From the IMG/VR virus record IMGVR_UViG_3300000970_000003: a DNA stretch of 44,597 bases; one strand, written 5' to 3'. This document shows positions 8,258 to 29,453 of the stretch, one piece after another. The first letter of the stretch is position 1. Each line of letters starts with the position of its first letter. A program made the position numbers and the translations under genes. This DNA is from a virus. The notes below the pieces were generated by a model. That model did not search any database. It was not told the origin of the DNA and was given only the letters and a program-made list of their open reading frames with translations.

Positions 8258-8258
8258 T

Positions 8259-8975: not shown

Positions 8976-8977
8976 CA

Positions 8978-9688: not shown

Positions 9689-9716
9689 CCCGTTCTCCTT
9701 CGTATTGCTCGTATTG

Positions 9717-10306: not shown

Positions 10307-10340
10307 CGTATTCCTCATGCTCATTTTATAACCAAATACA

Positions 10341-10369
10341 CTTATAGTATACACCGGGTATGGGTACTT
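10341..10369 (-). promoter_or_regulatory. degenerate copy of the bipartite motif
   Basis: Plus strand reads TAGTATACAC-cg-GGTATGGGTACT, about 39 nt upstream of the HTH gene start. Confidence 0.35.
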
Positions 10370-10469
10370 TATGAGGCAAAATGGCTGTTTGTCCAGAGGC
10401 ATGGAATACACACTGTTTATACACACTTTTGTAGGGCTTTAGGGTATGAATTTTGTATCTGCCTAATTA

Positions 10470-10679
10470 TTATGTTTCGGGGTCTTCCGTAATGAAATCC
10501 CTATCTTTTTTCTGTTTTTTTAGGTCGCTTTCTACCACGGCAGCCAAGTGATGCAGGGCGCACAATTTCTTGGCAATCTTTAAATCTATGTGGATATAGG
10601 TGGGGATATCCCCGTTCGCAGGCTCTTCGGTATTTAAAATGTTGTATATAAAGGCAGCGAAATCTCGGTCTCGTTTCAT
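10470..10679 (-). CDS. hypothetical protein
   Basis: Start moved to MKRDRDF, which follows TAGGAGTCGACCG. The track ORF extends to 10769. Confidence 0.45.
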   Translation of the reverse strand: MKRDRDFAAFIYNILNTEEPANGDIPTYIHIDLKIAKKLCALHHLAAVVESDLKKQKKDRDFITEDPET

Positions 10680-10855
10680 CGGTCGACTCCTAAAAGAGTG
10701 TTGGATAGCGTAGACAAGGCTGTCTCGGCCCCCTTCCATTATCCGTCCTGGAACTAGAAGCGCGTCCAACTCCTTAATTATTGCGCAGGATACTTTTCAG
10801 CACAAGGTTTTCTAGGTTAGCCTTTCCTCACATCAAAAATAGGAGGATGAGAAAT

Positions 10856-12112: not shown

Positions 12113-12468
12113 TGTAAAACCTCAGGCCTTACCACCCTTAAACGCTTCCAAAGCTCGGTGGTGAGGTCAAAAACCTTTATTTTACCTGCAAAAAGACTAT
12201 ACCCCTGATTAAAAAAGCTAGGGGATATTTCCAAAAGATCCGTGGCAAATGTTATATTATTAACCAGCTTACCGTCCTTGTCTTGGATAGAAAGCTCTTG
12301 AGCCACCTCTGATTCAAACACCCTGATCAATTCACAACTCACAAACCAATCTAGACTCATCGTCCTCCCCCTATACAGCTCCCCTTTGTAGGTTGCGAAG
12401 GTATCAATACCTGTTGAGCATAGGTGAATGTTTGCTGCCGTGGCTTTTAGTAGGTCAAGGTTTTGCAT
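12109..12468 (-). CDS. hypothetical protein
   Basis: 119-aa ORF coupled to the resolvase gene. Its stop overlaps the methyltransferase stop on the opposite strand (CTAG). Confidence 0.55.
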   Translation of the reverse strand: MQNLDLLKATAANIHLCSTGIDTFATYKGELYRGRTMSLDWFVSCELIRVFESEVAQELSIQDKDGKLVNNITFATDLLEISPSFFNQGYSLFAGKIKVFDLTTELWKRLRVVRPEVLH

Positions 12469-12925
12469 TTAAAATCATCTCCGGTTTCATTTTTGCTAGT
12501 GTTCCTAAGTGAAGCCCATCTTCAGGTTTTAAACCAGATCCAGGCTGTAAGTTTTTTAGTATTTCATGATTATAAAAAACTACCGAGTCCAGAATTTGAA
12601 ACCAGATGACGTAACCCGAAGGGATTGAGCCTCCCGTGAAATCGAGCCACTTAACTTGGCTTTGATCTATTTTTGAATGTGAAAAGGTTTTATTTTGAGT
12701 TGTTTTAGTGTCTAAGCAGGCTGATAAACCATCTTTAGTAATAAAAAAATCAAACGGGCTTTTAGCTCTTTTAAACTGAATGCCGTATTTGGTGCGGACT
12801 GTACGGCCTGCGTCCGGTATTCGAACCGCTCTAACCTTGTTCAGCGAGCAGAGGTCGACAAAAAAGTCTTCAAATGACTTTCCTGCGTCCCTCGCCTTTT
12901 TGCCTGCCCTAGCTCTCGTACTCAT
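12455..12925 (-). CDS. RecU-like Holliday junction resolvase (PD-(D/E)xK)
   Basis: SPFDFF ... ACLDTKT gives D...D-x-K. This is followed by IDQSQVKWL and GYVIWF, matching the RecU layout as I recall it. Confidence 0.55.
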   Translation of the reverse strand: MSTRARAGKKARDAGKSFEDFFVDLCSLNKVRAVRIPDAGRTVRTKYGIQFKRAKSPFDFFITKDGLSACLDTKTTQNKTFSHSKIDQSQVKWLDFTGGSIPSGYVIWFQILDSVVFYNHEILKNLQPGSGLKPEDGLHLGTLAKMKPEMILNAKP

Positions 12926-13196
12926 AGGCTTCTAGAATATCGAAGCGTCGCATTCTGACAAGCCATTCCTTAAACTTCGGGTATTTCCAACCAAAAGATT
13001 TATTGCCTAAAGAGTGAATCATAGTGTGATGTTTTCGGCAGAGTGCCGCTAAATTGGTTTCAACATCATCGCCTCCGGCTCCTACGGTGGTTACGTGGTG
13101 AGGCTCGGCTGGAAATCGCCCACATACAATGCATTTTTTTTGGTGATACTCTTTCAAGAGCTCTTTATTCACTATTCTTTTCTTTTTTGGAAACAT
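12909..13196 (-). CDS. HNH-type nuclease (DUF968-like)
   Basis: CIVCGRFPAEPHHV...NLAALCRKHHTMIHSLG. Confidence 0.6.
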   Translation of the reverse strand: MFPKKKRIVNKELLKEYHQKKCIVCGRFPAEPHHVTTVGAGGDDVETNLAALCRKHHTMIHSLGNKSFGWKYPKFKEWLVRMRRFDILEAYEYES

Positions 13197-13350
13197 GATA
13201 ATAGCATCGGTCGATACTTTTTTTAGATCAAGTGTGGAGCAGGGGGCTGCAAAGAATAAGTGAAACGAGCGATCATAGGAGGACCACTTCCCTAAGGGGG
13301 ATTAATCTTAACCCTGCCCCACGTATAAAACTCTACATGGGACAAAAGCC

Positions 13351-13614
13351 TTAGTCACAGATTTCTAGAATACCTCTTAGATTATGTTTTGCACACATAG
13401 ACAGCACAACATGACGAAGGGCTTTAGCCATCACGCCTTGCTTACCGATGACCTTACCTCGATCAGATTTTGCAACGTGTATTTCAAATACATCTAAAAC
13501 TTCAGATTTTGAATGGACGATTTTCACGTCCGATGGGTTGTTAACTAGCGAAAGGACTATTCCTTTGAGAACATCTTGTATTGTTTCCTGAATTTCGGTT
13601 TCCATATTTCTCAT
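13351..13614 (-). CDS. KH-domain RNA-binding protein (KhpA/YlqC-like)
   Basis: 87 aa with LVNNPSDVKI...DRGKVIGKQGVMAKALRHVV. This contains the GxxG loop (GKQG) in the small bacterial KH-protein layout. Confidence 0.65.
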   Translation of the reverse strand: MRNMETEIQETIQDVLKGIVLSLVNNPSDVKIVHSKSEVLDVFEIHVAKSDRGKVIGKQGVMAKALRHVVLSMCAKHNLRGILEICD

Positions 13615-18238: not shown

Positions 18239-18260
18239 GTAGGGATATGGTATATACTTA
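18239..18260 (-). promoter_or_regulatory. palindromic motif copy (GGTATATACT at 18249-18258)
   Basis: It overlaps the stop of the last late gene and sits 38 nt upstream of the exonuclease start. The conserved leader follows. Confidence 0.5.
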
Positions 18261-18599
18261 GCAAAGACTCTCTTCGACGGTCAACGCCTCTTCGATGATG
18301 TCAGCTTCAAAATCGCCTCCGGTAGGACCGACCTCAACTTGAATTGACTGATCTTCACCCACTACTAAGCCTGATGATTTAGCAGAAGGGATCGTCCCGG
18401 TAACCTTTCCTTTCACAGCGTCCGCAATAGTAAGCTCTCCTGCTGAAGAAGTAAGCTCAACAGGTGCCGTAGCTCCAGGCAAACATACTTTCACTTCAAG
18501 GCCTGTTAGGTCGTAGGCGTCATCCCCTTTTCTAATTGTAAGATCGAAATCCTTTTTTTTGCCTAAAATAATATTTATCTTTTCATTTTCGCAGGCCAT
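18258..18599 (-). CDS. Ig-like (BppU_N-like) structural protein
   Basis: 113-aa beta-rich ORF with DFDLTIRKGDDAYDLTGLEVKV and KGKVTGTIP, a pattern typical of Ig-like phage domains. Confidence 0.4.
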   Translation of the reverse strand: MACENEKINIILGKKKDFDLTIRKGDDAYDLTGLEVKVCLPGATAPVELTSSAGELTIADAVKGKVTGTIPSAKSSGLVVGEDQSIQVEVGPTGGDFEADIIEEALTVEESLC

Positions 18600-18608
18600 A
18601 CATTCTCC

Positions 18609-19118
18609 TTAGTCTAAATCCGCTAAAACATCTTGGCTTTTAATGTTAGCCGTTAAGCTGCTGCTGCGAATAGTGGCTTTTAAATTAGCATTTTCTGAAA
18701 TACTCACACCTATTTCATCAGAAACAAGCTTTGCTTTCAATTCTATGGTTTCTAAATTGGCCTTGAGATCCGCGTTTGCTTCAAAGTTTGCTGAAATACG
18801 ATCCTCATTAGCGCCTGAGGAGGCCGTCACGCCAGTATCTAGATCAAATACATCTGAGCCACCTGGGTAATCACAGGATACCGTGGTGAAGCCAGAGTCT
18901 TCATATACAACGTATCTAGCAAACACCTGGAGAGTTTGAGGCATTTGAACAGTATTGTTTAAATAAATACCTGCCCCTACGTTAGGCAAAGGAACCACCG
19001 CTACAGCTCCTCCATTCTTATCGGTAAGGAATGCTTGAACGAATTTTGTATCGTCAGCAGGGTATAGAGCTAAACGCAGCCCTAGAGTATCTCCTACCTT
19101 TCGATCAAAATCAGACAT
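18609..19118 (-). CDS. hypothetical structural protein
   Basis: 169 aa. The C-terminal part has short periodic L-K-A-x-(L/I) repeats (ADLKANLETIELKAKL...NLKATI...LTANI). Confidence 0.5.
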   Translation of the reverse strand: MSDFDRKVGDTLGLRLALYPADDTKFVQAFLTDKNGGAVAVVPLPNVGAGIYLNNTVQMPQTLQVFARYVVYEDSGFTTVSCDYPGGSDVFDLDTGVTASSGANEDRISANFEANADLKANLETIELKAKLVSDEIGVSISENANLKATIRSSSLTANIKSQDVLADLD

Positions 19119-19594
19119 TAAGCACTCTCCTCTTTAGCTAAAGTTTCAGGCGAATTGCCAGGAATATCAAGGTCTGTCCAGTCAGGATCAACGTCTGTAT
19201 ACAAATGTATTACAGTCCCTAAAGCCTTCTCTTCCTTTTCTATGGACTCTTTCACATGATCAATTTGCCAACTAAAGAGCATATTCACGAAATTATAGAA
19301 AAACCGCCAATATAGAGCAACTTTGGCAATTCCCTCTTCGTGCTTATATTTTGCAACCCCTAGAGCCATAGAAATAGTCACATCAGGATCTTGCCCCATA
19401 AACTTGGCACTTAAAAATTGATCCACTGAAAGGGCTATATTCCTGCCGTAAGTAGCAAGCTTAGGCATTTTTAAAGCTTTGCCTATGCCGAATATAATAC
19501 CGCCTTTAACTACATTAAAGACAGCCCAGGGCACATCTATAAGTGTTAATAGAAACATAGCAAAAAATACAAGGAACCTTTTTAACTTTTTCAT
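19118..19594 (-). CDS. membrane protein
   Basis: 158 aa with the N-terminal hydrophobic segment FLVFFAMFLLTLIDVPWAVF. Confidence 0.5.
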   Translation of the reverse strand: MKKLKRFLVFFAMFLLTLIDVPWAVFNVVKGGIIFGIGKALKMPKLATYGRNIALSVDQFLSAKFMGQDPDVTISMALGVAKYKHEEGIAKVALYWRFFYNFVNMLFSWQIDHVKESIEKEEKALGTVIHLYTDVDPDWTDLDIPGNSPETLAKEESA

Positions 19595-20418
19595 TAACCC
19601 TCTCCTAATCTAGCAGGCCACTCGCCGCATATTTGATATAAAATAGCCTCTTTAACAGAAAGATTGTTCTCAGGTATAGTTTCAAGGATTCCATAAACCT
19701 GTGTTTCTACAGCTGTAGCATCCGGGCCTTGACCGGGATCGTCGTTTATAAATTTTGGAGCATGATTTCTTAAAGCCAATTCCCAAGCATTTGATCCAGA
19801 GGCTCTATATTTATCTATCTCAAGTTTAAAAAAGCCAAAAACTAAATCAATATATTGTGAAGTGTTTGATCTGATCCCCTCAGCCACTAAAAAATCTATT
19901 TGACGGTCGCGACGCTTTCGCTCTTCTGTTTGAGCTTCCCATTGGTTATAGGTTTTAACTATTTCCTCTTTTACATCCCCTACCTGATTGTTCTCATCCC
20001 ACCACTCAAAATTTACTTTAAGCCCGGTCAGTATACCCTCTTCATTTCTAACATCGCTAAAAAGCTTTTTAACAATGACCTCATCTTTTTCTATACACAT
20101 ATAATCGGCTTCAACTTTTCTTCCCCTAACATACTTAGGAGACGATTTTCTAAATCCAAGGATAGAGAAATCACTTGTGCGGTGATCTAGGTTTTTACTT
20201 AAAACTCTGTGAACCCTAAGCTCTGCTGTAGGAGTTCCGTCATGGGCTGTTATAACCGTAGAAAGTTCAGCAGTTTCCTCTGTGGTCAAAGCCTCTTTAA
20301 GGTAAACAGATATTTGACCGTCTGTGGTTATAGCAGTGATCTTATTTTTAAGACCCTCGCTAAATTCACTTAAAAGCCTGCTTAGATTTATTTCTTTTAA
20401 AGGAAAGTCGTTTTGCAT
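19594..20418 (-). CDS. hypothetical protein downstream of the tail fibre gene
   Basis: 274-aa ORF coupled to the fibre gene. Confidence 0.55.
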   Translation of the reverse strand: MQNDFPLKEINLSRLLSEFSEGLKNKITAITTDGQISVYLKEALTTEETAELSTVITAHDGTPTAELRVHRVLSKNLDHRTSDFSILGFRKSSPKYVRGRKVEADYMCIEKDEVIVKKLFSDVRNEEGILTGLKVNFEWWDENNQVGDVKEEIVKTYNQWEAQTEERKRRDRQIDFLVAEGIRSNTSQYIDLVFGFFKLEIDKYRASGSNAWELALRNHAPKFINDDPGQGPDATAVETQVYGILETIPENNLSVKEAILYQICGEWPARLGEG

Positions 20419-20419
20419 T

Positions 20420-22327
20420 TTAGTCCTCCGTTGCTGTAGCTTTTATTGCGACAGCTCCTATATTGATTGGTTGAGAAACCTGCGCTTGCAGCTTAATAGT
20501 ATAAGTTCCTGCTGGCTGGTTTTGTAAAAAATGATCCGCCACACCGTTGTCAAAAAACGTAGATAAGGTATCTGGAAAGTCTGATCCGTTGTCTGCGTTT
20601 ATTACCACCCTGAACTGAGCTACAGAGTTAGCCGCCCCGGATCTAGCTGCTGAGTAAGTCGCCTCACCCCATACCGATCCAGGCTTTGTTAAGGTTACTG
20701 TAGTAGTCAAACCCGGAACGTCTGCGAAAGTTGTAGAGGTAAAGTTAATACCGCTCCCTGCAGCCTGGTCGAATGTAGTCTTAGCAAAATCGTTTGTAGC
20801 AACCTGCCTAAACCATGCAACTATTCTAGCGTCCGTCGTACTGCCGTTTGCAGTATTGGTTTGAAAAACCACCGTATCTCCAGCTAAAAACTCTATCGGA
20901 TTCGCTTGGTTTACCACCTCATTGTTGTTATTGAACAAAGGGGTCCACACCAATGTATTTACACCGTTTCTTCTTCTATAAATATTTACAGAAACAGAAG
21001 TTCCAAAAACATCAGCGTTAAAAGTTGCAGCAAAAAGAGTGCAATCAAAAGCTACAGGTATTCCGATGTCATTCCCGGTCGCCCCGTTTCCGAATGACCA
21101 TTCGTATTGACCACTTCCTATGCCGCCGTTTTCTTCAGCCCATATTGGAAATATAGTGAATCCGTTTGTTATAGGCTTCGGGACTACTATTCCGCTTTCT
21201 AATGTTAAAACCTCTCCAGAGTTACCCCCGGCAAGATTTACATCAGAGTGAGTTGAAACAGGTCCGTCAGCTGACACCTTTGCAGTATTCGCTGCGATCA
21301 AACCATTCTGAGCGGCTTGATCTGATTGTATAGAGTTTACTTGGTTCTGCAGGTTAGTATCTGCATTTTGCCTGTTCGTTGTCTCTGCCGAAATAGCGTT
21401 ATTGTTCGCAGTTACTTGTGTTTGAAGGTTAGAATCCCCGTTTGCCCTTGCAGTTTGCTCGGCTGTGATGGCGTTAGCATTAGAAGTAATATTAGAAGTG
21501 TTAGAAGAAATATTCGATGCATTGTTGCCTATATTTGTGTTTTGAGCATTTTGCTGGGTATCAATCTGCCCCTGCGTATAATACCTGGCATCCCCTCTAG
21601 CAATATTAAAATACTGCGGATGGTCGTCATCACCTAAACCTGAAAGGTTGCCATGATCTGTTACGCCGCTTAAAAAAGGGCTGAAGTCTACATCAAATGT
21701 TGAGCTATCATCTCTCTGAAAAGTGGCTATACCTGTAGTGCCGTTTAAAGTACCAGAGACTAGTCTGGATAAATTTGTATCATCAATATAAACACTTAAA
21801 TCAATATCCTGATTTACTCCGTCTTCATTTGTATAGCGGAGCGTGTTTCCAATTATTTGTAAGTTCGTAGTGGTTTCTGCTGCTTGAACAGCGGCTAAAA
21901 AATCAGAAATAGTTGAGGCTGTTTGAGTGCCTGTATGATTGGCTCTATCCCTATTAGCTGCGTCTCTATTGTTTAGCTGTGCAGGGGTTTCATAGTTATT
22001 AGGGTTTGAGGCATCATATTTTTGGTTTAATAAGTTATCGACCTGCGTTTGAGTGTAATATCGAACATCGCCTCGCGCTTGGTTAAAATATTGTGGATGG
22101 TCGTCGTCAGCAAGACCTTGAAGGGCTCCATGATCTACGGTCCCAGCCTCATAAGGAAGTTGAGACCAAGTGCTTACCCCGTCTCCTATTTTTATTTTTT
22201 TAACAGTTTCATCATAAACAATCTCACCTGACATAAAGACAGGGTTTTTAGCATCCCACGCAGCCGTGGTGTCTGAAAGGTTGGCCCACCTAAACTCAGG
22301 TGTAGGTAAATTAGAAGACATCGGCAC
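20420..22327 (-). CDS. tail fibre protein
   Basis: N-terminal GEIVYDETVKKIKIGDGVSTWSQLPY motif, two copies of DHG-x-L-x-GL-x-DDDHPQYF, and an N/Q/T-rich fibrous repeat region. Confidence 0.8.
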   Translation of the reverse strand: MPMSSNLPTPEFRWANLSDTTAAWDAKNPVFMSGEIVYDETVKKIKIGDGVSTWSQLPYEAGTVDHGALQGLADDDHPQYFNQARGDVRYYTQTQVDNLLNQKYDASNPNNYETPAQLNNRDAANRDRANHTGTQTASTISDFLAAVQAAETTTNLQIIGNTLRYTNEDGVNQDIDLSVYIDDTNLSRLVSGTLNGTTGIATFQRDDSSTFDVDFSPFLSGVTDHGNLSGLGDDDHPQYFNIARGDARYYTQGQIDTQQNAQNTNIGNNASNISSNTSNITSNANAITAEQTARANGDSNLQTQVTANNNAISAETTNRQNADTNLQNQVNSIQSDQAAQNGLIAANTAKVSADGPVSTHSDVNLAGGNSGEVLTLESGIVVPKPITNGFTIFPIWAEENGGIGSGQYEWSFGNGATGNDIGIPVAFDCTLFAATFNADVFGTSVSVNIYRRRNGVNTLVWTPLFNNNNEVVNQANPIEFLAGDTVVFQTNTANGSTTDARIVAWFRQVATNDFAKTTFDQAAGSGINFTSTTFADVPGLTTTVTLTKPGSVWGEATYSAARSGAANSVAQFRVVINADNGSDFPDTLSTFFDNGVADHFLQNQPAGTYTIKLQAQVSQPINIGAVAIKATATED

Positions 22328-22628
22328 CTCCTCCTTTTGCGCAGTCTATTCCACTGCCTGCATCTGTATTTGTCGCATTTCCAGCTCTAAAACAATTGAA
22401 AGCCTGAGGGGTTGATCCAGCCTCTTGAAGAACCCAATCAGTGACTAGAGGTCCAAACTTTCTCCAAATACGCGCTTGTTCATCAATATATAAAGTAGGG
22501 ACAGGCGCTTGCTGTCCCACAGGTGAACCAACACCCCCTACTATGTAGAGGGAAACGTCTCCGTCTGGTCCTGTAAAAATAACCCCGAACTGTTCGAGTC
22601 CGTAGGCTTCGTTTGAGTTGATAGCCAT
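22311..22628 (-). CDS. small fibre-associated protein sharing its N-terminal domain with 22628..23827
   Basis: GLEQFGVIFTGPDGD...APVPTLYID...DWVL parallels GLAIFGKDGD...APIPSLYFR...DWELL in the neighbouring gene. Confidence 0.55.
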   Translation of the reverse strand: MAINSNEAYGLEQFGVIFTGPDGDVSLYIVGGVGSPVGQQAPVPTLYIDEQARIWRKFGPLVTDWVLQEAGSTPQAFNCFRAGNATNTDAGSGIDCAKGGGADVF

Positions 22629-23827
22629 TATAGAGCTTCAGTAGTTTCTGTTCTTTTGACAGTGTATCTGATTCCAGAAGAGTCAGAAGTGTCTAGCTGT
22701 AAACCTATAGTTTGAGCAGCTCCAGAACCGTTTAATACAACATCAGCTTTAAGGTTAAAGTTACCAATTCTCTGTTTTACAAAAATTTGATCTTTAACAC
22801 TAGAAGCGTCAGCAGCAGAATGACCGTTATGGAAACCTAAGATTTTAAAAATCTTTACATTTCCAGGAGTACCAACATCGTGTGCAGTTACCAACCACTC
22901 AACAGACTGATATTCGTCAACTAAAAGAGTATCGACAAGCGTAGGAGAGTTTTGGTTGATTACAGCCGGGCCTAAGTTTGCAACAGGTCCAACTTCTTCA
23001 AGAGCAGTCTCTAATTCTTGTAGAGCATCTTTTACAGAACCGTTGTCAGAAATGATTTCGCCTGTGAATGTTCCAAGATTAGTTGCGCCTTGAGCTGTTC
23101 CTAAAACTTGGTCCTGAGCATCGTTGTTACCGTCAAGCTTAGCGATAGCTTCTTCACCGGAATCACCAGCAACCACATCTCCAGCGTTGGCTACATACGA
23201 ACCGCTTAGAGAAATACCTGTTAGAAGCTCCCAATTAGCATCACCTAGTTTGATTACATCTGTGCCGTTGAAATGAACTAAAGCTTGAAGCTCTTGAGAT
23301 CCATCACTGTCAGGGAGGTAGTTTTTAACAACGAAGTTGTTACCTGCAGCAAGCGGAGTCGCAGCGAAAGCTACTGTAATATTCGGAGAAGCTACAGCAG
23401 TTACTTCTAAAAGCTGTTCAGATGATCCGCCAACGCCAGAGATAATATAGTCACCAACCTGAAAATCATTGGCAGTGATTAAAGTGCCTTCATCGTCTGT
23501 AAAAGGATTAGCTGTTAAATCTCTAGTGCCTGGAGCAGCAAGCTGTTCACTGGTTGCAACACGAACACACTCTTCTCTGAAAGTGACATCCATTGAGGCG
23601 CCTGTATTTAAAAGCTCCCAATCTGCTGCATTGCCTACTAGAGCAATCTTTTTATAAATTTCTGTAGTGCCTGATCTGAAATATAGTGAGGGAATGGGAG
23701 CGGCATCTTGCTCCGCTGAATCACCGCCAGGAACTGCTAAACCTGATAGCACCTCCGCCTGTGGTGCATCGCCATCCTTACCAAATATCGCTAAACCTAG
23801 CTCTACTCCGAATAAATCTCTACTCAT
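22628..23827 (-). CDS. tail fibre or receptor-binding-like structural protein
   Basis: 399 aa, G/A/T/S-rich with no cysteine noticed. Its N- and C-terminal domains are shared with flanking small ORFs. Confidence 0.55.
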   Translation of the reverse strand: MSRDLFGVELGLAIFGKDGDAPQAEVLSGLAVPGGDSAEQDAAPIPSLYFRSGTTEIYKKIALVGNAADWELLNTGASMDVTFREECVRVATSEQLAAPGTRDLTANPFTDDEGTLITANDFQVGDYIISGVGGSSEQLLEVTAVASPNITVAFAATPLAAGNNFVVKNYLPDSDGSQELQALVHFNGTDVIKLGDANWELLTGISLSGSYVANAGDVVAGDSGEEAIAKLDGNNDAQDQVLGTAQGATNLGTFTGEIISDNGSVKDALQELETALEEVGPVANLGPAVINQNSPTLVDTLLVDEYQSVEWLVTAHDVGTPGNVKIFKILGFHNGHSAADASSVKDQIFVKQRIGNFNLKADVVLNGSGAAQTIGLQLDTSDSSGIRYTVKRTETTEAL

Positions 23828-23845
23828 CTAAATACCTCCATGTAT

Positions 23846-24175
23846 TTATATTATTGTTCGCACCAGCCTTACAGAAACTGGCGTTGTTTCGTTATTTTTA
23901 ACAGAAAGCTCTAAAGATCCACCATTACCTGAAGCATTTACCTCGACGCTCACAGGAGCTGAGTTTCTACCATAAACCTGACTGCATACATTTGTATCGT
24001 CTCTATAAACTTTGAGATTGAGGGTCTTGGCCTGGAAACTAGACCCTTTGTCGAAACAAACTAGGTATTCAATACAGTTGAATTTTGAAAAGGATAATAT
24101 ATCTACAATTTTAGTCGAACCCGCGTCTACGGAGTCGCTTTTCTTGATAGACGTTTGTAGATAAGAATCGGCCAT
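23846..24175 (-). CDS. hypothetical protein resembling the C-terminal domain of 22628..23827
   Basis: VDILSFSKFNCIEYLV ... LELSVKNNETTPVSVRLVR parallels VDTLLVDEYQSVEWLV ... GLQLDTSDSSGIRYTVKR. Confidence 0.5.
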   Translation of the reverse strand: MADSYLQTSIKKSDSVDAGSTKIVDILSFSKFNCIEYLVCFDKGSSFQAKTLNLKVYRDDTNVCSQVYGRNSAPVSVEVNASGNGGSLELSVKNNETTPVSVRLVRTII

Positions 24176-24184: not shown

Positions 24185-24550
24185 TTACTTTACGGCTAAA
24201 CCGATTAAAACGCCGAGGCTAATTCCTACGGTGAAGCCGCCTATAACAATTCTACGGTCAGCCAGCCATGATTTCTTTTTTGGTCCACCTGCATAGCATT
24301 TATCTAAAGCATTTCTAGTTGATTTGAGATCACGCTTGCAGACGTCACAGCTTTTTTTATAAGTTGCAAGGTCTTTAAGCTCGTATTGATCTAAACAAAG
24401 CTGTCCAGCAGGATCAGCTCTCCGAATCTTGAACTGAGGGTTCTCTAAGTTCGCGGCCTTCGCGTAAGGCGTCCCGAACAATGTCAGCATCAGACTTATC
24501 ACGATTAGCTTCTTCAACATCGATTCTATTTGTAAGGTATTCGTTCTCAA
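24185..24550 (-). CDS. exported protein with a Sec signal peptide, four Cys and a C-terminal TM anchor; spanin-like topology without a lipobox
   Basis: MLKKLIVISLMLTLFGTPYAKA|AN signal and C-terminal IVIGGFTVGISLGVLIGLAV. The start is embedded in another frame of 24414..24695. Confidence 0.5.
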   Translation of the reverse strand: MRTNTLQIESMLKKLIVISLMLTLFGTPYAKAANLENPQFKIRRADPAGQLCLDQYELKDLATYKKSCDVCKRDLKSTRNALDKCYAGGPKKKSWLADRRIVIGGFTVGISLGVLIGLAVK

Positions 24551-24695
24551 GCTCGCACTCCTCCGTTTTTCGTTTTTGAACCCATAACTTGTTTCTCAAA
24601 TATCTTATTACCGATATCAAGAATACGATAGGCAAAAGCCTCTTGACCCAGTCAAAAAGCTTTGTCTTCCAAGATAGATTCTTAAGCTTAGACAT
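24414..24695 (-). CDS. i-spanin-like protein (N-terminal TM plus charged periplasmic part)
   Basis: TM segment LLPIVFLISVIRYL followed by a charged coiled region. It lies in the lysis cassette and overlaps the next ORF out of frame. Confidence 0.45.
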   Translation of the reverse strand: MSKLKNLSWKTKLFDWVKRLLPIVFLISVIRYLRNKLWVQKRKTEECELENEYLTNRIDVEEANRDKSDADIVRDALREGRELREPSVQDSES

Positions 24696-24956
24696 TTAGT
24701 CCTGCTTTGGTGAGTGTTGACCTTCTGGAGTGATAACAGTGTTAGGCTTCTTTTTTACATTTGGAATCTTTAAGAAGTCGGCGATCTTTCTCAAGACCTT
24801 TCCTACACGCTCTACAGCCCCGTCATCCTTTTCTGTTGGCGTAAGCCTTACGATTGCCTCAGCAAGAGTAAAAAGAGTGGTCACGATAAAGGTGAGCGCA
24901 ACAATATTGCCCTTTAAATAAACATAAAGCTCTCTAAAAAAGTCTAGCATTTTCAA
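24696..24956 (-). CDS. holin candidate (single-TM membrane protein)
   Basis: 86 aa with TM segment IVALTFIVTTLFTLAEAIV, then LTPTEKDD and a basic tail. It overlaps the endolysin gene's end. Confidence 0.5.
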   Translation of the reverse strand: MKMLDFFRELYVYLKGNIVALTFIVTTLFTLAEAIVRLTPTEKDDGAVERVGKVLRKIADFLKIPNVKKKPNTVITPEGQHSPKQD

Positions 24957-25440
24957 TTCTCCTTTTTGAATATGTTAAAATATTTTCGTAGTTCATTGGA
25001 ATATAGATTTGCTTTCCTGTTGGATCATTAACGCCCATCCATCTATTGTGCCTATAGTCTAGAGTGCCATCCCCCTGGTCTTTTAATGGTCTAACATCTA
25101 GGTGAAAGCCACCGCATTTAGCTCCGTAATATTGCCAGTCTGGATAGTACCCTATGCCTGTAAAAGGAAATCTAAAAACCATAAGAAGCTGGTCTATAGG
25201 ATGTAGTTTCCAGTCAGGTATAATTATATCTACAGCCTTTGATCCATTTTCAACGTAGTGCCACGACTTTTCTGAGTGGCGACCCCCATTGCCTTGTAAG
25301 ATGAATACAGGACACCCAATAGTAGCCCTAAAATCATCCAAAATAAGAAGCAAATCATCATCCATCTTCGTGGCGTCACCCCAGTTCCCCTCTTTAGGTG
25401 AAAAATGTCTTAATTTGTCCCAAGTTTCCTTACTGGCCAT
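24934..25440 (-). CDS. peptidase M15-family endolysin (zinc D,D- or L,D-peptidase)
   Basis: SWHYVENGSKAVDI (H...A-x-D) and GGFHLDVRP (H-x-D) are the M15 zinc ligand motifs. Confidence 0.75.
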   Translation of the reverse strand: MASKETWDKLRHFSPKEGNWGDATKMDDDLLLILDDFRATIGCPVFILQGNGGRHSEKSWHYVENGSKAVDIIIPDWKLHPIDQLLMVFRFPFTGIGYYPDWQYYGAKCGGFHLDVRPLKDQGDGTLDYRHNRWMGVNDPTGKQIYIPMNYENILTYSKRRIENARLF

Positions 25441-25831
25441 CCGGTTCCTCTATAATAGTTTTATTTTTAAGTCGGAATATTTCATCATGAACTATACTCT
25501 TCACCCGTTTTTCTAGATCATCATGCAGTAACTGGACCTGCTCTTTGTGTAAATTAAATAGTTTGAGGGCCTCCTGGACACTAAAATCCATTTTAACAGT
25601 AAGCTTTTCATAGTGCTCAAGTGATCTCTGGAGCGTTCTTAGCTTATTACCCAGCCCGTTTATATCATCGCGTATAGATTGAAACTCTAAAGCCCTGCGC
25701 TGTTCTTTTAAAAGCACAATCTCTTTTTCTTTTTCAAACCATTTGTTTATCAAATAACGGAGAATAGGGACGGTGACTATACCAATCCCTATTATTATTC
25801 CGACTATCTGATAAAACTCACGATTCTCCAT
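25430..25831 (-). CDS. membrane-anchored coiled-coil protein, lysis-associated
   Basis: N-terminal TM segment IVGIIIGIGIVTVPIL followed by a long charged helical region. Confidence 0.45.
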   Translation of the reverse strand: MENREFYQIVGIIIGIGIVTVPILRYLINKWFEKEKEIVLLKEQRRALEFQSIRDDINGLGNKLRTLQRSLEHYEKLTVKMDFSVQEALKLFNLHKEQVQLLHDDLEKRVKSIVHDEIFRLKNKTIIEEPDGQ

Positions 25832-26592
25832 TACTGAGGGTTAGCTACCAGATACTCATTTATAAGATTTAAAATCTTAGTTTTATCCGCCTCTCTTAAA
25901 AGATCCTCATCTGGAGTAAGGCCTTCAATAGAGTTTTTTGCAGTCTTTATAGCGCCAGCGTCCAGAAGCCTGTTTATACTCTCAAAGTTATCAACGAAGG
26001 TTCTAACTTGAGCCTCTGTTAAATTTCTTAAAGTGTTTATAAGGGCTATCTCTTTTTTAAGGTTTTTACCAAAAGTAATATTTTTAGATATAATTTTCAG
26101 TGCACCTTCTTTTACAGCCTTTGCAGTATCTTCAGCGTCGGCAGCGTTCTTTTTACTAGTGTTTAAAACTAGAGTTTTTTGAACCTTCTGCTCATACCCT
26201 ATTACTCCTGTACAGTAATAGCTAAATCCTGGGAGTATTTCGTTTTCTGTGAAAGTAATATAATCTTCAGCGCCCTGGTCACAGTATGAAGAAAAGTCTC
26301 CATCTGGAAGATTTAAAGCGTCTATTTTTTCACCGCAATCAACAGCATCCGCACAAGAATTCTCTTTATACCTCTCTTTAAAAAGAGGCTTTGAAAGATC
26401 GTCTACGCTAGAAGTCACCTCATCATAGTGGCGATAGTCTTTTGTAGAGAAATCGTAACAGGTTCCACCCGATACATTTTCACAAACTTCTTTTTTTGTA
26501 TAAACAGTATTTCTATTTTCTAGAGTAGCCCAGGTTCCTGCAAAAGCAGAAAACCCGAACGCTAAAATAAATGTTATTGTAAAAAGTTTCAT
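25831..26592 (-). CDS. Sec-exported cysteine-rich protein, 253 aa
   Basis: Signal peptide MKLFTITFILAFGFSAFA|GT. Six Cys in the first ~130 mature residues, with a helical K/E-rich C-terminal half. Confidence 0.65.
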   Translation of the reverse strand: MKLFTITFILAFGFSAFAGTWATLENRNTVYTKKEVCENVSGGTCYDFSTKDYRHYDEVTSSVDDLSKPLFKERYKENSCADAVDCGEKIDALNLPDGDFSSYCDQGAEDYITFTENEILPGFSYYCTGVIGYEQKVQKTLVLNTSKKNAADAEDTAKAVKEGALKIISKNITFGKNLKKEIALINTLRNLTEAQVRTFVDNFESINRLLDAGAIKTAKNSIEGLTPDEDLLREADKTKILNLINEYLVANPQ

Positions 26593-26593
26593 A

Positions 26594-28840
26594 TTACTTC
26601 TCCCCGTAGCAAATGATTGAGTAACCCATATCAGCTAAACCACTGTTATCTGTTTTCGATAAGACTTGCATATTTGTAGTTGATACACCCTGGATTGAAA
26701 GGGTTTGAGTATCTGAATCAGAAACAACCGCAGATCCTACACAAGTAGGAGGCTTTCCAAATATCCCAGGAATAAAAGTGTAGTTTACATTCCCGGCTAC
26801 AACTTTAGATGAGCTTTGAATCCAGTCTTCACAGTTATCTTGATCAGGATCAAAGGTTACTGGAGCTGTTGTTACTATTCCACAAGCGTAAGCAACCATA
26901 TTAGGCCTAGAGGCTTGTAGCTTTCCTTGCAGACTGTCCTTAACATCTTTAAAAACAGGGCTTGGAACTTGCTGGTCTATATTTCTAACCGTTATAGTCA
27001 TTAGCTTTTCTAAACCGTTTACAGAATCACCAACTCTTAAAACTCTGTTTGAGTTTGGAGCGTTGTTGATAACTGAAGTAGTACGGCTCAATTTAAAAGT
27101 GTGCTTTATTCCGGCTTCTAACTCAAAAATATTACAAAAATCTATTTCGTCGTAGTAGTCACTTGATCCTGAAGCTGAATCGTAACCACCGTTTGAAGCA
27201 GTTACCAAACCTCTTTCAATAACCGTATTAGTAGAAGCGTTTACTCTATCCATTTGCCATTGATTTAAAACACCTTGAGCGGCTGCACCGATAACCTTTG
27301 TCTGAAAATTAAAACAAACATTATGGTTTCCGGATACTACAGGAATGAAAGCAAAGCCTAAGTCTTCAGCTCCTGAGCAGGTATCTCCACTTGGCACCTC
27401 AGTGTTGTCGCAGGCAATGTCTACGTTTCCATCCACATCAACCATTTCAAAAAATGAGCTAGAAAGATTTTCATCTGTAGCTGCGCCAGCTGGCAGGAAT
27501 ATATCAGAGCTATTTGTAGCCTGAATATAAGACCTAAAGAATGTTCCAGAAGTTTCTACGTTTAAAGTTTCTTTTACCGTCGGCTTAACCTGCGTCGCAG
27601 TATATGAAAACACACCCGAACTCATATCATTTGATGTCGCGAACCTAATAATTTGTCCGGCAGTTACAAGACCACTCCAAGAAGCTGAACAGTCAAAAGT
27701 ATTATTCGCACAGTTATCTTGCGCTAGTAACACTTGAGACCCTCCAGGGCCTTCTAATATTTGAGCACCAGCTGAAGTTTGCTGCGAGTTGTGATGGTAA
27801 GAAACTGTAGCGTAATGATCTACAACAGCCGTGATAAAGTTTCCAGACCAAACAAAAAGCTCGTCTACGGCGCCTGTGTTTCTGGCAATTACAAAATTTA
27901 AAACATCTCCAGATCCTGTTCTGTTCCCTCCTGTACCAAACATTGATTGTTGCTTTACAGACTCCCCTGCAAAACCAGCTCTCCCGGTTCCGATAAATAC
28001 GTTATCAAAAACAAAAGGAACGGCGTCGTCTGTAGAAACTAATCTAAACTGAAGGCTGTCTGCTGGATTATCAGGACAAGTGAAAAACTGAATAAAGGGT
28101 TTTGCCGTTTCAGCTACAGGAACCACGCTTGAAACCAATGTTTCACTAACGCTACCTGTTCTTAAAACCTCTACGTTTATATGCCCTTCAGTTCCTCCCA
28201 CGAAAGTATAGTCAAAAGCTACAGCGCATGATCTTGAAACCATACCCGGAGTGATTTGTACTATAGCCGATCCTACTGTTTCAGCACCTGCTCCAGGGTT
28301 CCAAACCGCAGATTGCTCACCAAAAAGGGGAGCTGATACAAAAGCTGTGAATGATCCTAGTCCGGTAGTAACCCAATCCTTAGGCGGATCTCCAGCTTCA
28401 AAATCAGGGTTAACGTCTTGTAGTACGTTAAAACCTGCTCCTGCTCCAGAACCCGCTCCTATATCTCTAAAGTTAACCCCGTCGTTTGCAAATTGAAAAG
28501 CCTGAGTTGCAAAATCAAACTTAAGCTTTGGATTCAATCCAGCTAGTCCAGCATCTACCTCAAACAATTTATCAGTAGTGTTTGTGCCGTCTCCTAATAA
28601 AACCCCGTTTCCCTCGACAACTAAATCTGTTGAAACTGCCAGTCTCTTATCTGCTACGCTTGTTTTCAACTTAGGGTTAGTAGCGCCGTCTCCAACGTCA
28701 AAACGAATTTCTTTATTGTCTGCACTAGAGCTTATTCCAAACTGTAGAACATCCGTTGCGAACTTCTGTGGAACACCTGCTGCGTAAGCAATACAAGCAA
28801 AAAGGGTAAGTCCTGCTAAAATTTTATATATATTTCTCAT
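26594..28840 (-). CDS. Sec-exported cysteine-rich large protein, 748 aa
   Basis: Signal peptide MRNIYKILAGLTLFACIAYA|AG. Twelve Cys after the signal (counted by eye), with repeats F(D/E)VD-x-G...NPKLK near the N-terminus. Confidence 0.7.
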   Translation of the reverse strand: MRNIYKILAGLTLFACIAYAAGVPQKFATDVLQFGISSSADNKEIRFDVGDGATNPKLKTSVADKRLAVSTDLVVEGNGVLLGDGTNTTDKLFEVDAGLAGLNPKLKFDFATQAFQFANDGVNFRDIGAGSGAGAGFNVLQDVNPDFEAGDPPKDWVTTGLGSFTAFVSAPLFGEQSAVWNPGAGAETVGSAIVQITPGMVSRSCAVAFDYTFVGGTEGHINVEVLRTGSVSETLVSSVVPVAETAKPFIQFFTCPDNPADSLQFRLVSTDDAVPFVFDNVFIGTGRAGFAGESVKQQSMFGTGGNRTGSGDVLNFVIARNTGAVDELFVWSGNFITAVVDHYATVSYHHNSQQTSAGAQILEGPGGSQVLLAQDNCANNTFDCSASWSGLVTAGQIIRFATSNDMSSGVFSYTATQVKPTVKETLNVETSGTFFRSYIQATNSSDIFLPAGAATDENLSSSFFEMVDVDGNVDIACDNTEVPSGDTCSGAEDLGFAFIPVVSGNHNVCFNFQTKVIGAAAQGVLNQWQMDRVNASTNTVIERGLVTASNGGYDSASGSSDYYDEIDFCNIFELEAGIKHTFKLSRTTSVINNAPNSNRVLRVGDSVNGLEKLMTITVRNIDQQVPSPVFKDVKDSLQGKLQASRPNMVAYACGIVTTAPVTFDPDQDNCEDWIQSSSKVVAGNVNYTFIPGIFGKPPTCVGSAVVSDSDTQTLSIQGVSTTNMQVLSKTDNSGLADMGYSIICYGEK

Positions 28841-28841: not shown

Positions 28842-29453
28842 TTAAACCTCTTCTATGTTTGATGTCAGACTGTTCAGGCTTCCTTGGTCATCTATCGTAG
28901 TGTCGCAATTTACAAAGTAGTTGTCTTGGATCATACAATAGTTCGCATTCGTTGTTAGCTGTAAAGCAATATCACCACCAGCCGAAAATCCAGAAAACCT
29001 AGCGCCTCTAAATCTTATTCTAGGAGCGTCTAAAACTATTGCTGAGTTGTTCACTCCAACCTTTGAAATCAAAGCCTGTGGCTTGAATGTAAAGTTCATA
29101 TCTGGCTGGTTTATGGTAACAGGTGAAGATAGAGCTTGTGGATCAGTGACCAGAATGTTCTTTTTACTAGCAATATTTGGATCAGCCAATAAAGCAGGTA
29201 TAGTTGCATGAGTGCCATCGACTCCCACCACAGCATCGTACTCATTTCTATTAGCCGCGACCGCATCTGTTTCCTCCTCAAAAAAATCAATCCATTCACA
29301 AATGTTTTGAAACAGCCAGTTAAATGTTTGCGCCGGAGGTCTTTCGTTTACTCCCCACCCTGCCGTTTTCTTGCCTGTTGAAGGCTCTACAGAAATCGTG
29401 GATTGGGAAGGATTGCCCTTCGTCCAGTTTATTTTACTCGTAGGTTTTGCCAT
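28842..29453 (-). CDS. short tail fibre/tailspike-like protein (conserved N-terminal anchor plus the start of a beta-helix)
   Basis: KINWTKGNP...GWGVNERPPAQTFNWLFQNICEWIDF resembles fibre or spike N-terminal anchors. The C-terminal part looks like beta-helix rungs but the protein is only 203 aa. Confidence 0.55.
   Translation of the reverse strand: MAKPTSKINWTKGNPSQSTISVEPSTGKKTAGWGVNERPPAQTFNWLFQNICEWIDFFEEETDAVAANRNEYDAVVGVDGTHATIPALLADPNIASKKNILVTDPQALSSPVTINQPDMNFTFKPQALISKVGVNNSAIVLDAPRIRFRGARFSGFSAGGDIALQLTTNANYCMIQDNYFVNCDTTIDDQGSLNSLTSNIEEV

Follow-up and report, generated by a model that had tools for sequence, protein, structure and literature searches.

A predicted secreted, cysteine-rich sugar-binding protein encoded in the tail-fibre slot of a myovirus group

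The gene found in the usual tail-fibre place of the uncultured phage DNA analysed here (the window: the whole 44,597 nt of IMG/VR virus record IMGVR_UViG_3300000970_000003) is predicted, from its sequence and modelled structure, to encode a secreted, disulfide-rich sugar-binding protein of 748 aa. As shown by gene-order comparisons, it forms with the adjacent 253-aa gene a two-gene module that is conserved at the tail-fibre locus of a myovirus group, and the GenBank phage records searched contain no match to this group. In about 20 contexts (the window, L002-L012, L015, L016, L021, L023, L025-27, L030 and L031), which cover three baseplate lineages, the order runs from baseplate J to a wedge (DUF2612, Mu gp48 or P2 I-like), a short conserved fibre, the signal-peptide protein, its partner and the lysis cassette; the exported cysteine-rich partner is present in most of them. 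A preliminary description of the window had rightly noted the contiguity of the exported genes with the lysis cassette, and this neighbourhood is kept in all three lineages. However, the region 24185-28840, which it presented as an island, has as its two main genes a core module of the locus, and the succession of fibre, lysis cassette and more fibres, described there as a split tail-fibre region, recurs in relatives. Two of the contexts, L003 and L010, have no further long fibre gene downstream.

Table 1. Features of the exported-protein locus and its surroundings in the window.
Feature	Position	Strand	Basis or remark
203-aa short fibre or adaptor, without signal peptide	28842..29453	-	Tail-fibre N-terminal motif
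748-aa Sec-exported, Cys-rich lectin-array protein (predicted; main feature)	26594..28840	-	ORF, Cys, family alignment, model
Signal peptide, aa 1-20, MRNIYKILAGLTLFACIAYA followed by A	28781..28840	-	Hydropathy, family n/h/c organisation, modelled helix (residues 5-20)
Conserved β-rich N-domain, aa 21-125	28466..28780	-	pLDDT 74-93; mean family identity 36%
Gly-rich linker and CBM4/9/22-like jelly roll, aa 126-290	27971..28465	-	pLDDT >90; conserved C205-C255 pair
Middle domain, aa 291-430	27551..27970	-	In the family, homologue of the Bd2734 (Bdellovibrio MAT) tip, TNF/C1q-like
Two C-terminal β-sandwich domains, aa 431-625 and 626-748	26597..27550	-	pLDDT mostly 84-97
253-aa exported partner	25831..26592	-	Signal peptide, 6-Cys β domain, long helix, helical bundle
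133-aa protein, N-terminal TM (residues 6-24) and coiled-coil region	25430..25831	-	Directly upstream of endolysin
168-aa candidate endolysin, weakly M15-like	24934..25440	-	Pfam Peptidase_M15_2 E=0.0045; PHROG 894 endolysin E=0.011
86-aa single-TM holin-like protein, motif RLTPTEKDDGAVER	24696..24956	-	phrog_9685, phrog_402
93-aa i-spanin-like protein, N-terminal TM and charged helical periplasmic part	24414..24695	-	Same gene in L009
121-aa ORF in o-spanin position, overlaps i-spanin-like gene	24185..24550	-	Type-I signal peptide (YAKA/A), 4 Cys, C-terminal TM
Second fibre-like set, 3' of lysis cassette	18258..24175	-	ORFs, profile matches, hydropathy

The first indication of export came from three ORFs, which are all present with signal-peptide-like N-termini (called by our own n/h/c heuristic rather than SignalP) and with the mature cysteine counts initially reported, namely 12, 6 and 4 for the 748-, 253- and 121-aa products; the first of these has 13 cysteines in total, one of which (C16) lies within the signal peptide. 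The accompanying claim that surrounding virion proteins have none or one holds for the sheath, tube and tape-measure protein (none) and for the capsid, baseplate J and the 399- and 635-aa fibres (one each), but is only mostly true because four neighbours carry three each (the 203-aa fibre, the 109- and 113-aa proteins and a 218-aa spike-like protein). Over the whole window, strongly hydrophobic N-termini with a 19-residue TM-like stretch are restricted to the 24185-28840 block and a 158-aa ORF (19118-19594); 13351-13614 gives a weaker 10-residue N-terminal hydrophobic flag without such a stretch. At the family level, the export and cysteine pattern is far beyond chance. Indeed, a Sec-type h-region and small residues at -3/-1 are found in 142 of the 142 aligned homologues of the 748-aa protein, and a positively charged n-region, as well as an even mature cysteine count with conserved cysteine columns, in 141. 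This family-wide conservation supports the export and disulfide bonding proposed for the pair, and the converse view that the homologues are ordinary cytoplasmic fibres fails, since a signal peptide is present in all full-length homologues inspected. A lipobox-like LFAC of PROSITE type (C16) offers an alternative reading of the window copy; such a pattern occurs in 2 of the 142 members.

AlphaFold predicts the 748-aa protein as successive jelly rolls of CBM4/22-like and TNF/C1q-like type. The N-domain contains an internal repeat (FDVGDGATNP / EVDAGLAGLNP) and ends with a family signature revealed by a motif survey, QF(A/S)NDGxxF(K/R)xIGxGSG. For the next jelly roll, Foldseek retrieved CBM22, CBM4, CBM16 and a porphyran CBM (target TM 0.6-0.8), a profile match was obtained to 4XUO (E=0.0026), and one of 40 members has a weak Pfam CBM_4_9 match. 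For the middle domain, the family profile (positions 269-418) matches 8OKW, i.e. residues 691-843 of Bd2734 (PMC10769870), with E=1.3e-24; the window copy is divergent there (pLDDT <50, no family cysteine pair) and gave no match when searched alone. The C-terminal domains hold conserved cysteines at 477, 488, 509, 569, 700 and 744 and finish with C-Y-G-x-K. Structure matches of the model are CBMs and TNF/C1q folds in the PDB, and phage minor tail, tail-fibre and host-specificity proteins in BFVD (E=1e-13 to 1e-8). As structure and profile searches found lectin/CBM-type and TNF-like folds only, and no catalytic or membrane-active domain, the envelope- or capsule-degrading exoenzyme listed among the early candidates is unlikely. 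The opinion that these are not virion parts is not established either: fold class, position and the N-conserved/C-variable pattern are those of receptor-binding fibres.

The family to which the 748-aa protein belongs is very large, undescribed and unannotated, with at least 3,159 clusters at 50% identity. It is absent from Pfam (bar the weak match above), PHROGs, NCBIfam and PLSDB plasmids, three members gave no family match against 50,697 GenBank phage records, and two scans of 185,579 GTDB species genomes, a set that we assume to include Bdellovibrio, returned no full-length member and two hits only, to the N-terminal motif, in MAGs. GC content of the related loci ranges from 36 to 54%; one of them, L023, is a real prophage adjoining tRNA-Met and tilS-ftsH-folP. 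Mean family identity is 36-39% in the N-terminal half and lowest (24-26%) in the C-terminal domains, and L021 retains this signal peptide and N-domain but has other distal domains, of C1q/caprin-like type. Together with the number of clusters, this argues for an evolution similar to that of receptor-binding proteins.

On the basis of profile homology, the family appears to share a domain with the prey-grabbing fibres of the predator Bdellovibrio bacteriovorus. These mosaic adhesive trimers (MATs; e.g. Bd2734, Bd2439 and Bd2740) similarly combine a Sec signal peptide, a conserved β-rich N-domain immediately after it and variable lectin/adhesin domains (Caulton et al. 2024, PMC10769870). They also have disulfide-bonded tips and resemble phage tail fibres; homology concerns the third domain of the family, while the N-domains are alike by layout. 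However, MATs are chromosomally encoded by a predator, which exposes them on its cell surface; they are trimeric and typically long (many ∼1,000 aa), and several include β-helical stretches. The present genes lie inside phage tail modules, beside baseplate and lysis genes, and their products have CBM/jelly-roll beads and a dedicated exported partner, besides a tip domain whose copy in the window is divergent. A second likeness is with the pairs of tail fibre and fibre assembly protein in Mu- and P2-type myoviruses (Mu S/U, P2 H/G), which occupy the same locus after baseplate J and gp48/I and associate a small partner with a large variable protein that has a conserved N-terminus, a variable C-terminus and lectin-type distal domains. 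To our knowledge, known tail fibres and their chaperones fold in the cytoplasm and are devoid of signal peptides, whereas both proteins are here predicted to be exported and cysteine-rich, and the baseplate-binding N-terminal fibre motif is found on a separate short protein of ∼190-200 aa.

In the window, this short protein is the 203-aa fibre, whose PHROG tail-fibre matches cover residues 11-62. Its orthologues are 32-52% identical to the window copy (alignment A9, n=10), similar to baseplate J and the wedge, and conservation is full-length up to a C-terminal N-I-x-E-V in which N199, I200, E202 and V203 are (nearly) invariant. Since it is conserved like baseplate proteins to its very end, we consider it adaptor-like. 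The exported partner defines a family of its own (P0005, P0006, P0154-P0168 plus loci), in which 17 of 18 members, i.e. all full-length ones, have a signal peptide (P0158 begins inside it) and 14 have exactly six cysteines. Its model (pLDDT 84) has no significant match in the PDB (best E=0.19); a chaperone role is tentatively suggested by gene order and a non-significant Hsp70-SBD-like match.

We tentatively favour, with a probability of about 35%, a scenario in which oxidative folding of the exported fibre takes place in the periplasm and is followed, after the holin has breached the inner membrane, by docking on the short-fibre adaptor of the virion. Late in infection, the 748- and 253-aa proteins would be exported by Sec, the former being folded and disulfide-bonded in the periplasm, possibly with the help of the latter, which would play in the periplasm the part of a tail-fibre assembly protein. 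Meanwhile, the tail would be built in the cytoplasm with only the 203-aa adaptor. Once the neighbouring lysis genes act, periplasm and cytoplasm would mix through holin lesions within a still intact outer membrane, the N-domain of the fibre would dock onto the adaptor, and the virion would acquire a disulfide-stabilised, glycan-binding fibre for receptor recognition. Late, coupled expression is suggested by TAATATG at the junction of the 203- and 748-aa genes (confirming an initial observation), by the overlapping stop and start codons between genes of the block and by the lack of promoter- or terminator-like signals standing out within 24-29.5 kb. Canonical holin lesions are large and non-specific, and tail fibres of phage T4 can join fibreless particles in vitro. 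A parallel exists with pIII of filamentous phages, which binds the receptor, is exported by Sec and disulfide-bonded, and enters the virion extracytoplasmically, as we propose for the present fibre; yet Ff virions are extruded through the envelope, while the present phage is tailed, has its heads and tails assembled in the cytoplasm and carries a holin-endolysin lysis cassette. For tailed phages, we know of no virion protein exported by Sec, nor did literature searches reveal one. Against docking, some family members (P0141, L031) lack the N-domain, and the window and most relatives also encode fibre-like proteins without signal peptide (399 aa; 635 aa with Mtd_N; the 606-aa type of L002), which could be the adaptor binders instead. 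In the same vein, the nearest relatives among characterised proteins are the MAT fibres, whose anchor is the cell surface rather than a virion (PMC10769870).

A possible, if less probable, alternative is a non-virion envelope lectin, exported late to bind surface or periplasmic glycans of the host, thereby masking the receptor, excluding superinfection and sparing progeny from debris. The family's export signals and disulfide pattern, its purely lectin-type folds and the presence of signal-peptide-less fibres for adsorption are all compatible with such a role. Receptor-blocking exported proteins encoded beside receptor-binding genes are exemplified by T5 Llp, phi80/N15 Cor and lambda Lom, which likewise target the envelope. 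However, exclusion proteins known so far are small, located in the outer membrane or often lipidated, and patchy in their spread; they are expressed early or from prophages, their genes being accessory morons or early genes with signals of their own. By contrast, the present multi-domain lectin is a 650-800-aa core product of three baseplate lineages, coupled with a dedicated partner within a late operon, and no moron-type signature (promoter, terminator, GC) was found at the gene pair. Although surface display of the MAT relatives (PMC10769870) also favours this role, a Sec signal alone delivers to the periplasm only.

More doubtful is a phage-borne MAT-type adhesin that would be exposed on the surface of a Bdellovibrio-like host, like the chromosomal MATs, and would alter its prey or surface adhesion; alternatively, these phages would simply be the evolutionary source of MATs. 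The profile match to the Bd2734 tip (E=1e-24) and the MAT-like layout, including a β-rich N-domain of ∼110-130 aa (PMC10769870), point in this direction, but a common tip may reflect mere domain shuffling among adhesins, and no full-length member occurs in the GTDB genomes scanned. The GC range of the related loci spans the values of Bdellovibrio-like predators, and L023 provides a case of lysogeny; nevertheless, no integrase was detected among the window ORFs scanned, and placement in a late structural operon is ill-suited to lysogenic conversion. Improbable, too, is a lysis or egress accessory, i.e. a periplasmic binder of peptidoglycan, LPS or capsule that aids envelope breach or shedding by the holin-endolysin-spanin system. 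It would account for the constant adjacency of the lysis cassette and for a spanin-position gene without lipobox in the window, and in the related MAT fibre Bd2439 the tip has GlcNAc from GlcNAc-MurNAc as a ligand (PMC10769870); against it, catalytic or membrane-active domains are missing, module-bearing relatives also have normal lipobox o-spanin-like genes, and in size, domain variability and N-conserved/C-variable pattern the protein does not resemble typical lysis proteins. Finally, the protein could be an ordinary cytoplasmic tail fibre, with a hydrophobic N-terminus that acts not as a signal peptide but, for instance, as a helix for trimerisation or baseplate insertion; this would fit the fibre slot and fold class but is very hard to reconcile with a signal-peptide organisation and cysteine parity retained while mature sequences fall to ∼25% identity, with a partner showing the same features, and with the top 150 representatives, in none of which a fibre N-terminus takes the place of the signal peptide.

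In the lysis cassette, the 133-aa product, with a positional equivalent in five other loci (L004, L006, L009, L021 and L023), is probably a lysis protein with holin T-like topology; homologues of the candidate endolysin lie at the same position in L003 and L009, and those of the holin-like protein in L002, L004, L006 and L009. Contrary to its initial assignment to the exported module, the 121-aa ORF lies outside it and overlaps the i-spanin-like gene, with which it forms a spanin-position gene pair. It may start at a TTG (GGAGG 9 nt upstream) or at an internal ATG, aligns weakly with lipobox o-spanin-like proteins of L004 and L002, and has in L009 a 43% identical homologue of the same layout. 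Like Rz/Rz1, the pair overlaps and ends the lysis cassette, the 93-aa protein having i-spanin topology, and the N-terminal signal and C-terminal TM of the 121-aa product recall the unimolecular spanin gp11 of T1. In contrast to spanins, however, the 121-aa product has a type-I cleavage site but not the lipobox cysteine, and hence none of the lipid anchoring in the outer membrane by which o- and u-spanins are defined. The second fibre-like set comprises products of 109, 399, 105 and 635 aa, then 274, 158, 169 and 113 aa; signal peptides are absent from it except for the 158-aa TM protein, and its 113-aa member is BppU_N-like.

The three ORFs of the preliminary description (748, 253 and 121 aa) are all present in the window and carry the claimed cysteines: 13 in the 748-aa protein (one inside the signal peptide), six in the 253-aa and four in the 121-aa protein. 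The 748-aa protein has no match in Pfam, PHROGs or NCBIfam, nor in 50,697 GenBank phage records (megablast, tblastn), its family has none among the PLSDB plasmids, and a word-indexed search retrieved just two relatives. A profile built from those three sequences and scored against 1.84 billion representative proteins revealed a family of at least 3,159 clusters (50% identity) at E≤1e-3, with 1,160 at E≤1e-30 and a length of 650-820 aa in nearly all of them. Searches of Pfam, PHROGs and NCBIfam with the 748-, 253- and 121-aa proteins and 40 family members were empty except for one Pfam CBM_4_9 match (1/40 members; 0/40 for PHROGs), and three members searched against the 50,697 phage records matched solely through the swapped C1q-like part of a variant (locus L021). 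Being unseen by NCBIfam, PHROGs and, bar this weak match, Pfam, the family is annotated as hypothetical everywhere. On sequence grounds, these proteins appear to form a very large family, not described before, of lectin fibres that are exported and occupy the tail-fibre slot.

Export and disulfide bonding are probably defining properties of this signal-peptide family and no chance feature of the window, since the signal peptide and the cysteine parity are kept family-wide. In an alignment of 142 members that includes the window protein, a signal-peptide h-region and a −3/−1 cleavage-type site occur in every sequence and a positively charged n-region in 141, signal peptides being called by an n/h/c heuristic and not by a SignalP-type predictor. 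Similarly, each full-length sequence among the best 150 of the 3,159 clusters opens with a charged n-region, a hydrophobic core and a small-x-small site. The count of mature cysteines (8 to 20) is even in 141/142 members, with conserved columns at window-protein positions 205/255, 477/488/509/569 and 700/744. The core of the preliminary description, namely extracytoplasmic and disulfide-bonded proteins, is therefore well supported by the family-wide signal peptides (as called by the heuristic) and even cysteines. A lipoprotein family was ruled out because a lipobox-like pattern is found in just 2/142 members, one of which is the window copy (LFAC, C16). The accompanying claim that the surrounding virion proteins have no cysteine or one holds for the sheath, tube and tape-measure proteins (none) and for the capsid, baseplate J and two large downstream fibres (one), but fails for several small neighbours of the three ORFs, which have three. 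In a hydropathy scan of 59 ORFs, strongly hydrophobic N-termini with a TM-like stretch were confined to the block 24185-28840 and a 158-aa ORF, while 13351-13614 gave a weaker hydrophobic flag and no TM-like stretch. The 158-aa ORF, located inside the downstream fibre-like gene set, starts with MKKLKRFLVFFAMFLLTLIDVPWAVF… and has no family match.

Features of the window, of the modelled 748-aa protein and of related loci
Feature	Position	Strand	Remark
Portal	444-1817	minus	
TerL	1883-3322	minus	
202-aa ORF	5407-6015	minus	early/middle region
N6/N4 DNA methylase, 443 aa	10781-12112	plus	Pfam E=2e-27
158-aa ORF	19118-19594	minus	hydrophobic N-terminus
Overlapping 93-/121-aa pair	24185-24695	minus	out of frame
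121-aa ORF	24185-24550	minus	
133-aa TM + coiled-coil protein	25430-25831	minus	just upstream of endolysin
253-aa ORF	25831-26592	minus	
748-aa ORF	26594-28840	minus	
203-aa short fibre	28842-29453	minus	
Capsid	41276-42187	minus	
748-aa protein, signal-peptide helix	residues 5-20		AlphaFold2 model
748-aa protein, β-rich N-domain with internal repeat, then Gly-rich linker	residues ~21-125 (N-domain)		AlphaFold2 model
748-aa protein, jelly roll, CBM4/9/22-type (domain aa 126-290)	model residues ~140-290		pLDDT >90
748-aa protein, poorly modelled stretch	residues 290-430		AlphaFold2 model
748-aa protein, two further β-sandwich domains	after residue 430		AlphaFold2 model
L003, 59-aa lipoprotein	6907-7086		integrase-bearing relative
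L009, homologous spanin-like pair	8958-9465		
L021, 779-aa variant	2676-5015		contig binned as Elusimicrobiota MAG
L023, prophage with module	1-13300		ENA ERZ25039505 contig_8936, 1.26 Mb
L023, tRNA-Met	13132-13208		

The AlphaFold2 model of the 748-aa protein, made with the 142-sequence alignment (mean pLDDT 80), points to binding rather than catalysis. Its domain aa 126-290 adopts a predicted CBM4/9/22 jelly-roll fold and is a putative carbohydrate binder: domain-level Foldseek searches of the PDB returned CBM22, CBM4, CBM16 and a porphyran-binding CBM (target TM 0.6-0.8), this domain matching 4XUO/4XUP, 2ZEX, 1GUI and 8XMZ, and 4XUO was also matched by the family profile (E=0.0026). TNF/C1q-type jelly rolls were among the PDB matches as well. 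Searches of BFVD returned phage minor tail, tail-fibre and host-specificity proteins (E=1e-13 to 1e-8), whose low global TM is expected from a beads-on-string arrangement of modules. The structure matches from PDB and BFVD comprised binding modules and no enzyme fold, and no catalytic domain of the 748-aa protein was found in Pfam, PHROG or NCBIfam. A depolymerase or exoenzyme is thus unlikely for want of a catalytic fold, and neither of two earlier candidates, an envelope- or capsule-degrading enzyme and an outer-membrane-disruption component, gained support. Conservation across the family follows the pattern of a receptor-binding protein, with a conserved N-terminal part (mean identity 36-39% for N-domain and CBM), variable distal domains (24-26% for the three of them) and domain swapping. 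Indeed, the 779-aa variant of L021 shares the signal peptide and N-domain and differs in its distal part, which contains a GQVLTADGSGG fibre motif, C1q/caprin-like domains and only two cysteines, and which matches a metagenomic phage "caprin-2 domain protein" (MW202898). Such a difference speaks for an exchange of tips as modules.

The window, a metagenomic contig of 44.6 kb, comprises a whole phage genome, with an E217/Pam3-type tail and baseplate and all its late genes on the minus strand. We compared it with about 20 independent contexts of the module (the 748-aa family gene plus its 253-aa partner) from Logan, JGI, IMG/VR, ENA and GTDB MAGs, covering three baseplate lineages. Gene order is always baseplate J, wedge (DUF2612, Mu gp48 or P2 I-like), short fibre and signal-peptide protein, followed usually by the partner, then by lysis genes and often by further fibre-like genes. 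The signal-peptide gene therefore holds the position of a tail fibre, directly downstream of the wedge genes in the late operon, in some 20 contexts and three lineages, although the signal peptide universal in the family is foreign to the definition of a tail fibre. Given this shared order, the splitting of the fibre region and the way it adjoins the lysis cassette are ancestral traits of the three lineages. The junction behind the claimed translational coupling was confirmed, the 203-aa fibre-like gene passing into the 748-aa gene through TAATATG, and the genes that follow abut or overlap by one base. A readthrough fusion of these two ORFs is ruled out by an intergenic gap in a Mu-type relative (L002). 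The contiguity with the lysis cassette also recurs in relatives, whereas the notion of an island did not stand: synteny is shared, a consensus scan found promoter- or terminator-like sites not to be enriched within the block 24185-28840, and its GC (37-42%) is near that of the window (~42%). A moron or inserted island was rejected for the same conserved synteny and lack of expression signals, the gene being found in every related tail module seen and showing neither a patchy distribution, nor a deviant composition, nor a promoter or terminator of its own. These comparisons show the module to be a core, late-expressed part of the tail-fibre locus, co-inherited with the lysis cassette; by its sequence and modelled fold it is of an exported, disulfide-bonded and lectin type.

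The short fibre measures ~185-290 aa across contexts (436 aa in L031), and the 203-aa one of the window has no signal peptide. Among ten aligned orthologues of the E217 type, it is 32-52% identical, a degree of conservation like that of baseplate J and the wedge, and its C-terminus N-I-x-E-V is nearly invariant, which suggests a docking motif. It looks like an adaptor and not a specificity determinant. Two relatives (L003 and L010) have no other long fibre gene after the module. In L023, the module lies in a true prophage within a bacterial contig and encodes a 617-aa signal-peptide protein and a 172-aa partner; the lysis end abuts a tRNA-Met gene, then tilS-ftsH-folP.

The 253-aa protein is probably a conserved exported partner. 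Its homologues all begin with a signal peptide (n/h/c heuristic) except one N-terminally truncated entry, and 14/18 sequences have exactly six cysteines. The AlphaFold model (pLDDT 84) combines a β-hairpin sheet, a 44-residue helix and a helical bundle and has no significant PDB neighbour, the best being an Hsp70 substrate-binding domain at E=0.19, on which we do not rely. In L003, the usual slot of the ~250-aa partner, directly after the signal-peptide protein, holds a 59-aa lipoprotein (MKYLLIFLGLAFFAGC…) resembling small Cor/Llp-type exclusion lipoproteins or an o-spanin.

In contrast to what had been proposed, the 121-aa ORF belongs to the lysis cassette and not to the 748/253 module. Lysis genes across contexts comprise a holin-like single-TM protein, a TM + coiled-coil protein, an endolysin (M15-like, GH108 or amidase) and an i-spanin/o-spanin pair. 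The 133-aa TM + coiled-coil protein keeps its place directly upstream of the endolysin in L004, L006, L009, L021 and L023 although the type of endolysin varies; its topology is like that of the T4 holin T, so that it may itself act as the holin or else regulate lysis. The 121-aa ORF overlaps a 93-aa gene in the style of Rz/Rz1; the 93-aa product is i-spanin-like, its N-terminal TM being followed by a charged helical tail, and the 121-aa protein has a type-I signal (…TPYAKA|A), four cysteines and a C-terminal TM (residues 101-119). L009 shares the whole lysis cassette, including this pair, with a homologue of the 121-aa protein that is 43% identical and has the same layout (signal ending AKA|Q). 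The 121-aa protein aligns weakly with lipobox-bearing o-spanin-like proteins of L004 and L002, and normal lipobox lipoproteins occupy the spanin position in L002, L004, L006, L011, L015, L016 and L023. Although its overlapped position and i-spanin-like partner are those of a spanin, it has no lipobox cysteine; its topology is that of a u-spanin but without the lipid anchor. It is thus best regarded, from its sequence, as a putative spanin-position protein without lipid anchor, itself unusual.

The signal-peptide family seems related in part to the mosaic adhesive trimer (MAT) fibres of Bdellovibrio. A profile search of PDB sequences gave a single strong hit, profile positions 269-418 matching 8OKW (E=1.3e-24), the structure of the TNF/C1q-like lectin tip (residues 691-843) of Bd2734, a MAT fibre of Bdellovibrio bacteriovorus (PMC10769870). 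This domain is internal in the family and not terminal; it is divergent in the window copy (low pLDDT, family cysteine pair lost), which alone gives no match. MATs look like the tail fibres of phages and are exposed on the predator surface; in all 21 of them the signal peptide leads straight into a conserved β-rich domain of ~130 aa, behind which come variable adhesin tips (PMC10769870). The phage family shares this overall layout of signal peptide, β-rich N-domain and variable distal part, a likeness of layout, with a post-signal domain of ~105 aa versus ~130 aa in MATs. MAT structures in the PDB are tips only, and a metagenome scan with the Bd2734 tip, seeking the MAT N-domain, gave false positives only. 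The family would thereby join two known kinds, tail-fibre modules and MAT adhesins, and offer a concrete origin for the "phage-like" adhesins of the predator. The link could moreover be a clue to the hosts that this group of uncultured phages infects, and makes Bdellovibrionota a candidate, not proven, host group. The lipobox o-spanin-like genes of relatives indicate diderm hosts; related loci span 36-54% GC and cultured relatives are remote (baseplate J <30% identity, TerL ~43%). GTDB species genomes contain no full-length family member and only two N-terminal motif matches, both in MAGs, one being the domain-swapped L021. The L023 prophage is the best handle on a host, and a cluster look-up of its adjoining host genes returned no taxonomy.

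The reading we prefer, with a probability of about 0.35, is that the 748-aa protein is a distal receptor-binding fibre folded in the periplasm and joined to the tail at lysis. The fibre would fold oxidatively together with its 253-aa partner and, after holin lesions connect the compartments, would join the cytoplasm-built tail via the short-fibre adaptor. This route is physically plausible, as holin lesions are large and T4 fibres can be joined to particles in vitro. It accounts for the slot and the lysis linkage, for the coupled translation, for a short fibre that looks like an adaptor, for an N-terminal part more conserved than the C-terminal one, for the partner in chaperone position and for the loci without any other fibre. 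Against it, ordinary fibres are encoded by most relatives as well, and the literature searched contained no precedent for exported tail fibres; to our knowledge, the characterised tail fibres of tailed phages all fold in the cytoplasm. A new virion-assembly route has nonetheless a realistic, if minority, chance and would mean a compartment-spanning pathway coupled to lysis. The wider proposal that phages of an uncultured host group Sec-export the fibre with its chaperone-like partner, dock both at lysis and were also the source of MAT adhesins is similarly tentative.

Among the alternatives, a non-virion lectin for receptor masking or exclusion is doubtful yet comes next to the preferred reading; the ordinary fibres of most relatives would then serve for adsorption. 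A surface adhesin of MAT type, carried by phages of Bdellovibrio-like hosts, is rather unlikely: the MAT-like layout speaks for it, the place in the late structural operon against it. Even less probable is a lysis or egress accessory; it would fit the recurrent lysis adjacency, but no catalytic domain was found and the N-conserved/C-variable pattern is not typical of lysis proteins. It is very improbable that the protein is an ordinary fibre of the cytoplasm whose signal peptide does not work, as all full-length homologues among the best 150 have a signal peptide. The exported lectin family in the fibre slot thus represents either an undescribed kind of virion building, in which lysis sets the moment of a last assembly step across the inner membrane, or undescribed, widespread late phage exoproteins acting on the host envelope.

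As for the remainder of the window, no tRNA gene was found in it and no integrase among the ORFs scanned. Portal and terminase at the left end with protease and capsid at the right suggest a circularly permuted or circular assembly. The 202-aa ORF has 14 cysteines (6.9%) and no Pfam match, and may bind metal. Finally, the DNA methylase is the only plus-strand ORF scanned that could be assigned, all other annotated genes lying on the minus strand.
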